From Escherichia coli (GTDB lineage Bacteria; Pseudomonadota; Gammaproteobacteria; Enterobacterales; Enterobacteriaceae): a DNA stretch of 2,676 bases. Location: the NCBI RefSeq assembly GCF_003334355.1, contig NZ_QOWP01000072.1. One strand, given 5' to 3'. The notes under the pieces are model-generated. The model saw only the letters and a program-made list of their open reading frames with translations. It did no database searches and was not told the origin of the DNA. Positions 1 to 2,676 of the stretch are shown here, one piece after another. A program made the translations under genes and the position numbers. Each line of letters opens with the position of its first letter. Within the stretch, counting starts at the first letter, position 1.

Positions 1-394
1 TTTCTTCCGCCTCCCGGATCCGGAACAGTTTTTCTGCTTCCGTATCCTTCACCCAGGCTGTGCCGTTCCACTTCTGAAACTCCCCTTCCGGCGATAACCA
101 GGTAACATTTTTCGGTAACGGACCGAGTTCAGAAATAAATAACGCGTCGCCGGAAGCCACGTCATAAACCGTTTTACCCCGATGATCTTCAACGAGATGC
201 CACGATGACTCATCACTGTTGAAAACAGCCACGAAGCCAGCCGGAATATCTGGCGGTGCAATATCGGTACTGTTTGCTGGCAGACCTGTATGAGGCGGAA
301 TATATGCATCACCTTCACCAATAAATTCATTAGTTCCGGCCAGCAGATTATAAATTGTTATGGTCCGTGGTTGTTCACTCATTCTGAATGCCAT
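1..394 (-). CDS. tfa: Tail fibre assembly protein / fibre chaperone (Tfa family); 3'-partial (first 131 codons, 394..2, plus one base of the next codon; C-terminal part outside window)
   Basis: ATG at 394..392 on the minus strand. Hand translation gives [131 protein letters not shown] with no stop down to position 2. From memory this is near-identical to the N-terminal domain of lambda Tfa and E. coli prophage Tfa paralogues. Sits directly 3' of stf with a 1-nt overlap. The track's 49..330 minus ORF is a different frame of the same DNA. Confidence 0.93.
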
Positions 395-2676
395 TATGCA
401 AGCCTCACAATATAGTTAAATGCGATGTTTTTGACGGTGTTTTCCGCGTTACCAGCAGCGTTAACGGTGATGGTGTGTCCATGTGAGCCAATCGCAACGG
501 AGTGCGTATGAGCACCAATACCGACAGTATGTGCGTGTGCACCTGCGCTTGCAGCAGTACCCGATACAGAGTGCGTATGAGCGCCTGCAGAAGAAGTGTT
601 AACACTGTATTTAGAATAATCAGGTGATCCACTTCCCGGAGCACCACTGGAACCACCTGAAACAAATGTCATCGAATGGGTATGTGCACCGGCTGAAGCA
701 GCCGTACCGCTAACACTATGGGTATGTGCACCAGTGTTATTCGTGGATTTAGTGCCGTAATCAAACGATGATGTGGTTTTCGTCCCCAAATCCGTACTGG
801 ATGCGCTGGCGCTGTGGGTGTGCGATTTAATGCCGTCCTGTTCCTGAGACAATACGGCACGACCACTGGCGGGCTTGCCCTTAATCGTCCAGCCACGCAT
901 ATCAGGAATAACGCCTGACGGATAAGCCACTGCAAGTTTCGGGTATGCAGATTTGTCAAAAGTCTGCCCCTGCATCAGGGCATAGCCAGACGGAACGGTA
1001 TCTGATGGCCACGGGATTGGTGCGCCGACTGGGTAGCTTTCTGGTGGAAGATTTTTCGAGGTATAAACTTCTGCCCAGTCATCCTCAAAACCATAACCGT
1101 CTCTTGAAGAACGGTAGAACAGACCACCATTTCTGTAATGCGCCTTCATCTGCAGGGTCCGGCAACTTCCGACTCCGGTATAGAAGTTAACCAGAATATA
1201 GCTGTCGCCAGAGCGAGTGACATTGTAAGCGCCTGATTCGGCATTCCATGGAACGCCACCATCCGCATCGGCATATGTATCCGTTGCCCTTCTGGCAAAA
1301 GCAGCCACATGCGCGGCGGTTAAAGTAATATCTTTGGAACCATCAAACTCAACACCAGAAACCCGTCTTGGCGTTTGCAGCTTTGTTGCTGTTAATGCAT
1401 TACCGTTCAGACTTGCGGACAGTTTGGTTCCAATAACCAGTTCGCCGGTTGCGTTATCAATAGCAAACGGTCTTAATGTATTCCAGCCACCATAAACATC
1501 ACCTTGATTGGTAAGCAGCAGGTAAGTTTTAGCGCCATCATTACGCCATAATGCACCATACTCTCCACCTATCATTCGAATCTGATTACCACCACGCGCT
1601 ACAATTTCGTCTGTGGCAAAAAGTTTTTTGCACGACAAGTTATCGTTAACGATTAACGAATGAGACTCATAAAAACCACGCCCACTCTTAAAATCAAGGA
1701 TAACGTCCGCCGCGATACATTCAGTCGCTGGATTTGTTGCCCCAAACTTATAGGTCGTATCATTAACAACGAGATCAGCACCAGGTGCGGATATTGACAG
1801 GCCATCTTCGATAAACGCAAAAACAGGGAAAGCAGCGCCATCAACATAGAACACAGAGCGCAAATCATCGCCCTTATTACTCATCATTATTGAGTGGATG
1901 GCTCGTTCATTGTTTTGATATTGCCAGAACATTCCATAAGCATAACGCCCCCTGTCAGTCCAGCCACCAGGCATAACAAATCCATTAAACTCGCAGTTAT
2001 TCATCGGATCGCCTGCGGTTCGCGTTGCCGTGGTGATAATGACCCTTGATGCCAGTTCGCTTACTGAGCCAGCAGAACGCATAACAACAACAGGGTAATA
2101 TTTTCCAGATGTTGCACCTGCAGGAGCGTTAACCCGCACATAACGCATACCACGCTTATCAGCAAAGTCTGTTTTACTGACCGCGTTAATGTTGTTCAGG
2201 AAGCGTCCCTTATCGGGTATATCAGCGCCGTTCTGGTCTTTCTGCAGACGTTTCTCTGCATTGTCATAGGCTGATTTTACTGCCTTTGGCGTTGCCGCCA
2301 GCGTTTCAGACGTACTGTTGGTCGCACTGCTGAGCTGTACTATCCCCTTTTTCGTCGTGCTCGCATCCTCAAGCGCCACGGCGGATGCAATATCCTCTGC
2401 CCGTTTTGCTGCTGTCTCGGCGCGCGTTGCCGCGGATTCCGCCGTACTTTTGCTCTGAGCTGCCGCTGCCGCACTGCCAGCAGCCTCTGTCGCCTTCGTG
2501 GATGCCGTCGTGGCGCTGCCCTTCGCTGCTGACGCCTGTCTGGTCGCCTCATCTTTTGAAGCAGACGCAGATGATGCCGATGACGCTGCCGAACTGGCGG
2601 ACGATGCGGCTGCCGTTTTTGAGGATTCTGCACGGGTTTCCGACGCTTTCGCGTTCGTTTCGGATGTCTTCGCTGC
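394..2676 (-). CDS. stf: Side tail fibre protein, lambdoid Stf family; 5'-partial (N-terminus beyond window end 2676); 760 sense codons in window plus stop TAA at 396..394
   Basis: Hand translation of the minus strand from 2676 down is continuously open in one frame to TAA at 396..394. The track's 661-aa ORF (394..2379) is this frame cut at an internal GTG; upstream in frame reads [46 protein letters not shown]... with no stop or start codon. Contains the conserved tail-fibre motif [30 protein letters not shown], a collar-like motif ([39 protein letters not shown]) and a C-terminal HxH array ending ...[11 protein letters not shown]. Followed immediately by tfa, the canonical stf-tfa order. 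Family call is from recalled similarity to lambda/Rac-type Stf, not a search. Confidence 0.93.
403..407 (-). promoter_or_regulatory. Probable Shine-Dalgarno element for tfa (TGAGG) inside the last codons of stf
   Basis: Minus strand upstream of the tfa ATG reads TTGTGAGGCTTGCATAATG: GAGG at 406..403 lies 8 nt upstream of ATG (394..392). The stf stop TAA (396..394) shares its last A with the tfa ATG (TAATG). Confidence 0.5.
472..825 (-). repeat. Protein-level repeat array within stf: seven His-X-His motifs (SHTHS, AHTHS x4, AHAHT, SHGHT) in Gly/Ser/Ala-rich context; predicted metal-binding fibre-tip (needle) region
   Basis: Direct translation of the last 143 codons of stf: [10 protein letters not shown]...[27 protein letters not shown]...[66 protein letters not shown]. 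Visible on the + strand as recurring gtgcgtatgagc / atgggtatgtgc motifs. This is a sub-region of the stf CDS, not a separate gene. Confidence 0.75.
826..1041 (-). other. Collar-like segment of Stf ([63 protein letters not shown]), immediately N-terminal to the HxH array
   Basis: Direct translation. The pattern (aromatic/Ala-rich stretch followed by IPDMRG-W-KG) resembles the 'phage tail collar' motif recalled from T4-type and lambdoid fibre proteins. The domain call is from pattern memory only. Confidence 0.4.
2263..2352 (-). other. Conserved tail-fibre motif ([30 protein letters not shown]) shared among tail fibres of otherwise unrelated phages (P2 H, Mu S, lambda Stf, T4 gp34/37 class)
   Basis: Direct translation. 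From memory the motif closely resembles the conserved segment described in comparisons of P2, Mu, lambda and T-even fibre genes. Position is within stf, just C-terminal of the Ala/Ser-rich segment. Confidence 0.55.
2380..2676 (-). repeat. Ala/Ser/Thr-rich low-complexity segment of Stf (includes the [12 protein letters not shown] motif and a [15 protein letters not shown] tract); presumed extended fibre shaft/linker
   Basis: Hand translation of the same frame as stf: [97 protein letters not shown]. The DNA is GC-rich and dominated by GCN/TCN/ACN codons. Sub-region of the stf CDS. Confidence 0.7.

Follow-up and report, generated by a model that had tools for sequence, protein, structure and literature searches.

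A predicted StfR/Qin-type side tail fibre gene from a lambdoid Escherichia coli prophage is a mosaic relative of lambda stf

The window, by which we mean the whole 2,676-nt stretch of E. coli DNA analysed here, contains parts of two overlapping genes on its minus strand, the second preceded by a likely ribosome-binding sequence:

397..2676, minus strand: stf, side tail fibre gene, C-terminal 760 codons of about 1116, with stop codon TAA at 396-394; assigned from its open frame, its identity to StfR and its PHROG match
2..394, minus strand: tfa, encoding the tail fibre assembly chaperone, codons 1-131 of about 191, open to the window edge
403..406, minus strand: GAGG Shine-Dalgarno motif for tfa, separated from the ATG by an 8-nt spacer

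Translation of the minus strand from 2676 to 394 yields 760 sense codons (2676..397) and then TAA at 396-394. Counting stops across the window in all six frames gives 4 for the stf frame, every one of them past the stf stop, and 30-57 for each of the other five; given the base composition, 760 stop-free codons would arise by chance with a probability of about 2e-17. The ATG of tfa (394-392) overlaps the stf stop in the sequence TAATG and opens a frame of 131 codons, and in the lambda imm21 record a ribosome-binding site is annotated ahead of tfa at the same spacing as the GAGG motif. An initial annotation of this DNA had proposed an intact stf frame over all in-window codons, an intact tfa start, and Ala/Ser-rich sequence still running at the window edge, and all three observations are confirmed. 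We regard the other open reading frames of the window as artefacts, since they are short, lie in stop-filled frames or overlap stf out of frame; among them, an Arg/Gln-rich frame of 97 aa (2340-2633) results from reading the Ala-rich repeats in frame +1. An Rfam scan of the window returned zero RNA families.

Comparisons with databases and genomes place the two genes among known prophage genes. All 760 residues of the in-window Stf align with K-12 StfR (residues 357-1120), at 95% identity, and the top PHROG hit is the tail fiber protein family phrog_295 (E 1e-240). The Tfa product matches phrog_105 (tail fiber assembly, E 1.5e-98) and is 98% identical to K-12 TfaQ and 95% identical to lambda Tfa (orf-194), and its C-terminus, which falls past the window edge, is similar to U, the assembly protein of Mu (5yvq_B). 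An NCBIfam search with Stf and Tfa assigned no family to either. At the DNA level, the window differs by one nucleotide from a 1116-aa stf in a Qin-site prophage of E. coli PSS-12, where tfaQ (191 aa), pinQ, ydfK and ynfT follow stf and a truncated ydfJ marks the Qin site. A 99.6%-identical copy with the same layout lies within a nearly complete 48-kb prophage of ETEC1732, and the gene order in both genomes is J, lom, stf, tfaQ. Since stf and tfa are full-length in these nearest genomes, we infer that stf is probably complete upstream of the window and tfa downstream of it. The suggestion that the full protein would be longer than that of lambda and of prophage type is thereby borne out. We therefore read the window, with a probability of roughly 0.9, as an intact StfR/Qin-type stf of a lambdoid E. 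coli prophage, present here in its 3′ two-thirds, together with the first 131 codons of tfa. Such stf genes are common in E. coli and already known: 4605 of 5426 complete E. coli genomes match some part of the window, and 1278 match at least 80% of it.

The stf product can be divided into successive structural regions, from the N-terminal to the C-terminal end of the in-window part:

2377..2676, minus strand: end of the Ala/Ser-rich heptad repeat, proximal coiled-coil shaft (window aa 1-100), from periodicity
2275..2376, minus strand: conserved junction motif (window aa 101-134), the last lambda-shared block, with a mosaic breakpoint directly after it, from blastn and protein alignment
1042..2274, minus strand: central module of the shaft, of StfR type and 411 aa long (window aa 135-545), without lambda homology
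397..1041, minus strand: distal tip resembling T4 gp37 (window aa 546-760), comprising collar, needle with seven HxH motifs and distal head, from PDB 2xgf and Pfam
883-1026, minus strand: Pfam Collar domain, within the distal tip
586..672, minus strand: hypervariable loop of the head, window aa 669-697, flanked by the third and fourth HxH motifs, from multi-sequence comparison

In the proximal shaft, 14 of the 15 heptads carry Ala in one and the same register, the Ala autocorrelation peaks at lags of 7, 14, 21 and 28, and the spacings of the DNA repeats are multiples of 21 nt; the proximal coiled coil of lambda Stf comprises residues 102-393 (PMC12617516). In a PDB phmmer search, the Mu tail fibre protein S (5yvq) matches full-length residues 440-521, including the junction motif. 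The central module is identical to that of K-12 StfR in all but 2 aa, has PDB matches to T4 gp34 and Mu S/S', and contains a Pfam Gp34_trimer domain at full-length residues 663-762 (window 1459-1758, E 3e-27). The distal tip carries Pfam Collar and Phage_fiber repeats, and matches the T4 gp37 tip (2xgf) with an E of 1.9e-88 over full-length residues 901-1116. Its seven HxH motifs lie at window aa 619, 651, 665, 700, 714, 723 and 732, and the gp37 needle has the same number of metal sites. Outside the window, residues 1-134 of the PSS-12 copy form an N-terminal anchor of family PF08400 (phage_tail_N, E 5e-71), a domain that spans residues 1-91 in lambda (StfN). Residues 1-94 of the PSS-12 copy align with chain 9e7m of lambda Stf (E 1e-50). 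The gene thus has an anchor domain, a position after J/lom with an overlapping tfa, a heptad shaft and a gp37-like tip, as expected of a lambdoid Stf.

It is textbook knowledge that StfR/Qin-type stf genes are related in mosaic fashion to lambda stf and T4 gp37, and the present protein follows this pattern. With StfR (b1372, encoded with TfaR in the K-12 Rac prophage) it shares the coiled-coil end, the central module, the gp37-like tip, the gene order stf-tfa-pin and nearly the same length (1120 aa for StfR, 1116 aa here). However, the present copy has another, shorter allele of the head loop that HxH motifs 3 and 4 enclose, and StfR lies at the Rac site, whereas the window-type copy lies at the Qin (ydfJ) site in the nearest genomes. 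With StfQ (b1547, K-12 Qin) the chromosomal site, the downstream genes tfaQ, pinQ, ydfK and ynfT, and a 98%-identical Tfa are shared, but the two fibre proteins part in a segment of the distal shaft and in the head loop, and across 262 aligned columns they are 76% identical. K-12 StfQ is annotated at only 320 aa and overlaps nohA, and we read it as a deletion remnant. The similarity to T4 gp37 extends over 216 aligned residues (collar, needle and C-terminus), while the head region differs and elsewhere the protein has no kinship with gp37. T4 relies on gp57A/gp38 in place of a lambda-type Tfa.

By homology to Ur-lambda Stf and T4 gp37, the roughly 1116-aa Stf would trimerise, and each virion would carry four such fibres. 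The N-terminal domain, which the window does not reach, would make up a collar on the tail tip, the long Ala/Ser heptad coiled coil would be the proximal shaft of the fibre, and the central module, composed of gp34-like and Mu-S-like segments, would be the distal shaft. The tip would consist of a collar, a needle held by the HxH motifs through metal binding, and the head loop, which would contact an outer-membrane receptor, likely OmpC or LPS. Tfa would aid the folding and trimerisation of the tip, and the side fibre would quicken reversible adsorption, after which the central fibre J would bind its own receptor. Trimers, the domain plan and OmpC binding have been described for Ur-lambda Stf (PMC12617516; bioRxiv 10.1101/2022.09.30.509847), and fibre assembly in the virion and faster adsorption have been shown only for Ur-lambda (PMC12617516). 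The full-length stf and tfa of the nearest genomes, the low dN/dS against stfR, the seven HxH motifs and the isolated phages with long intact Stf proteins speak for a working gene. A functional side tail fibre is accordingly a reasonable prediction for the protein and a more tentative one for a virion.

The alternative that fares best is that the gene looks intact but is dead, a relic in a cryptic prophage that makes no virions, in which decay has not yet arrived. The PSS-12 prophage lacks integrase, immunity and replication genes, IS1 and IS1203 occupy the place where its early region would be expected, and its Q gene is truncated, so stf there is probably silent and would probably need a helper phage or recombination to enter a virion. 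Likewise, the K-12 Rac prophage retains a full-length stfR although it is heavily deleted, and in E. coli H37 and H48 the gene is interrupted by an IS1 or IS3 insertion. Against this, stf and stfR differ by 36 synonymous and 7 nonsynonymous changes, and the resulting dN/dS of about 0.06 points to purifying selection along the lineage. Moreover, the copy in ETEC1732 resides in a nearly complete prophage, the isolated phages 2H10 and PhiR34_1 carry intact long Stf proteins of the StfR/Qin type (1117 and 1134 aa), and infecting lambdoid phages can capture stf and tfa genes from defective prophages through recombination (PMC3945230). We therefore consider a mere relic possible, if rather unlikely.

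A second alternative, that the stf C-terminus and tfa form a Pin-invertible host-range switch like those of Mu (G), P1 (C) and e14 (P), derives from the presence of pinQ, which encodes a Pin-type serine invertase, 97 bp downstream of tfa in PSS-12, ETEC1732, 2H10 and PhiR34_1. However, no second, opposite-facing set of stf C-terminus and tfa lies between tfa and pinQ, and a repeat search of the stf-tfa-pinQ region found no convincing flanking inverted repeat, the best pairs being of 14-24 nt at 71-88% identity. The sequence AAACCNNGGTTT, which we assume to be the core of the invertase crossover site, is also unmatched near the locus. We therefore rejected an invertible tail-fibre segment as very improbable.

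To return to the reading as a StfR/Qin-type gene, its relation to lambda stf bears on the central claim of the initial annotation, namely that the locus is not the frameshifted allele of laboratory (PaPa) lambda. Just 39% of the window aligns to lambda, at about 90% identity, and megablast and blastn give no more than three blocks of homology; the coiled-coil end, the tip and tfa are 82-93% identical in DNA. At the coiled-coil end, the blastn homology stops at position 401 of the reverse complement, or window 2276. Protein alignment to the 774-aa lambda Stf, whose length the initial annotation gave correctly, pairs only window aa 1-147 and 547-760 and leaves the central approximately 400 aa unaligned, and no lambda homology was detected in the central 411 codons (2274-1042) at either the DNA or the protein level. 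The two loci have in common the N-terminal anchor, the Ala/Ser heptad coiled coil up to ...TPKAVK, the gp37-like collar and needle, the C-terminal 46 aa, the closely similar Tfa and the position after J-lom. The coiled coil is about 70-85 aa longer here than in lambda, the head loop also differs, and lambda Stf has 8 HxH motifs (counted from its translation) in comparison with 7. Where lambda has its hinge and distal coiled coil (147 aa, from lambda aa 386 to about 530), the alignments place the unrelated central module in their stead. On these comparisons the window stf is related to lambda stf as a mosaic and not as an allele, with the two exchange breakpoints just after ...TPKAVK and just before GAPIPWPSD. 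The reading implied by the framing of the initial annotation, in which this would be Ur-lambda stf, the ancestral lambda gene unaffected by the PaPa frameshift, is thus virtually excluded despite the similarity of the shared blocks and of Tfa, since the low coverage and the non-homologous central module refute it and the full protein length (1116 versus 774 aa) and the Qin site with pinQ downstream, where lambda has ea47, also speak against it.

The frameshift of PaPa lambda can nevertheless be assigned a positional equivalent in the window:

2242..2247, minus strand: positional equivalent of the PaPa site, codons L144-Q145 (CTG CAG), from ungapped protein alignment

The lesion is CCC in place of CCCC at J02459 20833-20835 (CCCC run 20833-20836), in Stf codons 395/396 (A395/P396). 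In a sequence alignment, PaPa and HK630 have CCC, and Lambda_AGU and lambda imm21 have CCCC. Loss of the C leads to a stop 7 codons on (orf-401) and a separate orf-314. For mapping, window aa 121-147 were paired without gaps with lambda aa 372-398. At 2247-2242 there is no C-run and the frame is open; the point lies 10-11 codons beyond the homology breakpoint, and the PaPa C-run is in a part of lambda that is non-homologous to the window. A frame break had been anticipated near coordinate 1340, about 315 codons before the stop; this was wrong by about 900 nt, and lambda's own break is 379 codons before its stop. In the window, a net gain in length (a much longer central module and a slightly shorter tip) puts the equivalent point 616 codons before the stf stop. 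As the locus is a different mosaic, its open frame is uninformative about the PaPa lesion, and 'not the laboratory allele', though correct in that no frame break is present, follows trivially for a locus that was never a lambda stf allele. The absence of the laboratory frameshift is true but ordinary.

The most variable part of the fibre is the head loop, which presumably sets receptor specificity. It has six differing sequences and lengths in the window, 2H10, PhiR34_1, StfR, StfQ and lambda, with invariant flanks, and the loop of the window is unlike those of lambda, StfR, StfQ and T4. This allele (query 560-730) is present in 623 of the 5426 complete E. coli genomes (about 11%) and in none of the lambdoid phage records of the searched collection; the closest phage sequences, at 81% nucleotide identity, belong to AV116 and AV118, which are phages of about 168 kb. 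The short allele could tentatively be taken to confer a receptor specificity unlike that of lambda Stf and T4 gp37, which bind OmpC, although we think this doubtful.

The significance of these results lies mainly in the correct annotation of the locus, with little beyond it. The kinship with AV116 and AV118 would suggest, on that doubtful reading, that head modules are exchanged between temperate and virulent phages, and the head-loop alleles are candidate parts for engineered chimeric lambda fibres. More generally, intact fibre genes of defective prophages form a reservoir for lambdoid phages (PMC3945230).

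Translation of the minus strand confirms the open stf reading frame reported in the initial annotation: from 2676, 760 sense codons are followed by a TAA at 396-394. This frame contains four stops across the window, every one beyond the stf stop, and the remaining five frames contain 30-57 stops apiece over the whole window. Given the window's base composition, the chance of 760 codons without a stop is roughly 2e-17. The ATG of the assembly gene tfa (394-392) overlaps the stf stop (TAATG), has a GAGG upstream at 406-403, and starts a frame that stays open for 131 codons, up to the window edge. 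Out of frame with stf (+1, minus strand), an Arg/Gln/Pro-rich ORF of 97 aa at 2340-2633 overlies the Ala-rich repeats; it appears to be a side effect of the recurring GCN codons and was not counted as a gene.

The gene encodes an StfR-type side tail fibre, in its full-length version from the Qin prophage family. The in-window Stf is 95% identical to residues 357-1120 of StfR from the K-12 Rac prophage, is 76% identical to K-12 StfQ (320 aa) in the tip alone, and can be aligned to lambda Stf only at amino acids 1-147 and 547-760. For the part of Tfa in the window, identity is 98% to TfaQ and 95% to lambda Tfa. Of the 5,426 complete E. coli genomes searched, 4,605 match at least part of the window and 1,278 contain 80% or more of it. 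The best match, in strain PSS-12 (NZ_AP027697.1, 557600-560275), differs by one base at window 2309, in a conserved motif: TCT (Ser) in the window is TTT (Phe) in PSS-12. Ser is also found at this codon in lambda and K-12 StfR, so the window holds the conserved state and is not PSS-12 DNA itself. The PSS-12 stf has 1116 codons, which, together with the identity to StfR, bears out the earlier guess of a longer, prophage-type Stf.

The same annotation had framed the locus in terms of lambda, and this framing fails: in a comparison with 50,697 phage records, lambda and the phages closest to it align with just 39% of the window, at roughly 90% identity. Other lambdoid phages give full or near-full coverage, namely 2H10 (95.4% identity) and ev099, mEp332, PhiR34_1 and Kati (97-98%). 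An Ur-lambda allele is rejected on this partial coverage and on a central module that has no lambda counterpart. The parts of the fibre, in full-length residue numbering, are as follows.

Features of the side tail fibre
Residues 1-134, outside the window: Pfam phage_tail_N, matching the solved lambda Stf N-domain
Residues about 115-456, of which the last 100 aa are window 2676-2377, minus strand: Ala/Ser-rich heptad repeat (periodicity analysis)
Residues 457-490, window 2376-2275, minus strand: conserved motif, the last block in common with lambda (DNA and protein alignment)
Residues 491-901, window 2274-1042, minus strand: central module of 411 aa without lambda counterpart (DNA and protein alignment)
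Window 1459-1758, minus strand: Pfam Gp34_trimer, inside the central module
Residues 902-1116, window 1041-397, minus strand: T4 gp37-like tip (solved tip 2xgf, E 1.9e-88)
Window 883-1026, minus strand: Pfam Collar domain, in the tip
Window 586-672, minus strand: hypervariable loop between HxH motifs 3 and 4 (comparison of six fibres)

In the heptad repeat, Ala occupies one register in 14 of 15 heptads, with Ser or Ala three to four residues on; Ala autocorrelation has maxima at lags 7, 14, 21 and 28, and at the DNA level the repeats are spaced by multiples of 21 nt. The repeat continues upstream in PSS-12 (locus L002, 19270-20300), reaching about 340 residues in the full protein. This periodicity suggests a coiled coil whose core is made of small residues, and the repeat corresponds to what is called the 'proximal coiled coil' in Ur-lambda Stf (PMC12617516). 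The distal end of the central module resembles Mu S/S' (PDB match), and the tip carries seven HxH motifs. The gp37 needle of 2xgf reportedly binds seven metal ions through motifs of this type. The mosaic exchange points sit at well-known conserved fibre motifs.

We mapped the lesion of laboratory lambda (PaPa) by aligning J02459 (PaPa) and HK630 with Lambda_AGU and lambda imm21. The single difference found is CCC in PaPa and HK630 versus CCCC, following AAAAG, at J02459 20833-20835. With the extra C, lambda stf encodes 774 aa; without it, the frame stops seven codons on, giving orf-401, and orf-314 simply begins at a later ATG. The lesion therefore lies at Stf codons A395/P396, at a distance of 379 codons from the stop rather than the roughly 315 previously supposed. 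It is thus located at the start of the lambda Stf hinge, which is modelled as residues 394-422 in Ur-lambda (PMC12617516). In an ungapped protein alignment (window 121-147 versus lambda 372-398), A395/P396 pair with L144-Q145 (CTG CAG) at window 2247-2242, 616 codons ahead of the stf stop, so the frame break expected near 1340 was misplaced. The equivalent site is nevertheless inside the window and in frame, so the refuting case named in the initial annotation, a frameshift position outside the window, does not apply; there is no C-run at 2247-2242. Since lambda DNA homology ends at window 2276, this site falls 10-11 codons inside the non-homologous module; and as the gene is not a lambda allele, the laboratory-lambda frameshift test carries no information.

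Over 656 codons, the gene differs from K-12 stfR by 36 synonymous and 7 nonsynonymous changes (dN/dS about 0.06), and it has all seven HxH motifs as well as the conserved C-terminus. Isolated phages carry intact Stf of this type (2H10, 1117 aa; PhiR34_1, 1134 aa); in both, stf is followed by tfa and a gene for a Pin-type invertase. Both nearest genomes examined, PSS-12 and ETEC1732, have stf (1116 codons) and tfa (191 codons) annotated as intact. ETEC1732, whose copy matches the window at 99.6% identity, has kept nearly all of its prophage, which spans some 48 kb between int and pinQ. The PSS-12 neighbourhood is the K-12 Qin prophage site: downstream of J and lom comes stf, and after it tfaQ, pinQ, ydfK, ynfT and a truncated ydfJ. 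For some host genomes it is plausible that the gene is a silent relic in a cryptic prophage, as the PSS-12 prophage is without integrase, immunity and replication genes, and its Q is cut beside IS1203 and IS1. Upstream of the late genes (PSS-12 locus L008, 19000-21600), IS1 and IS1203 occupy the place where the early region of a Qin-type prophage would be expected; the late operon, annotated as intact from the lysis genes through tfa, is probably silent. However, a silent relic would still be the same StfR-type gene, and stf/tfa of defective prophages can enter virions through recombination with infecting lambdoid phages (PMC3945230).

Lesions were seen in relatives. In E. coli VG888-46E9 (H37) and TOE3 (H48), stf is broken by IS1 or IS3, and natural IS inactivation of the gene therefore occurs. 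The StfR-type stf of phage ev099 (locus L009, NC_049953.1) has an in-frame stop at 3599-3601, equivalent to window 1578-1576. The sequence reads ...ARGGNQI*MIGG there, against R367 (CGA) in the window, and the gene is cut into two ORFs of 724 and 410 codons in the same frame. Barring a sequencing error, this sequenced lambdoid phage would carry an independent lesion that inactivates stf, reminiscent of lambda PaPa.

The Pin-type serine invertase gene pinQ lies 97 bp downstream of tfa in PSS-12 (L002 22956-23546), and such a gene also follows tfa in ETEC1732, 2H10 and PhiR34_1. Despite this invertase gene, we rejected a host-range switch by Pin inversion: no second fibre-tip/tfa set was found near pinQ, and a repeat search of stf-tfa-pinQ gave no convincing inverted crossover sites. 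TTTCCATTTACGGCAAGGAA, in the intergenic stretch, could represent one degenerate crossover site.

By homology with Ur-lambda, Stf would be trimeric and make up four fibres that extend beyond the central fibre J, held at the gpV-gpM junction by twelve N-domains arranged as a collar. Tfa would serve as the chaperone for fibre assembly, and at its C-terminus it is similar to protein U of Mu, which has been crystallised together with Mu fibre S. The fibres may bind an outer-membrane receptor reversibly and so speed adsorption. In Ur-lambda, reversible binding to OmpC raises the adsorption rate 10- to 30-fold, and the side fibres are dispensable for plaque formation (PMC12617516; bioRxiv 10.1101/2022.09.30.509847). 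Since the distal shaft is longer than in Ur-lambda and the head loop is unlike those of lambda, StfR, StfQ and T4, OmpC or the LPS core can be given only as the obvious candidate receptors.

By homology with gp37, the loop at 586-672 would be the distal head that contacts the receptor. Six fibres (window, 2H10, PhiR34_1, StfR, StfQ and lambda) have six loop alleles, varying in sequence and length between invariant flanks. With a 171-bp query (window 560-730), the window's allele was found in 623 of the 5,426 genomes and was absent from lambdoid phages among the 50,697 phage records, where the nearest are AV116 and AV118 (about 168 kb each, 81% nucleotide identity). The kind of gene and its place are already known and hold no surprise for a phage biologist.
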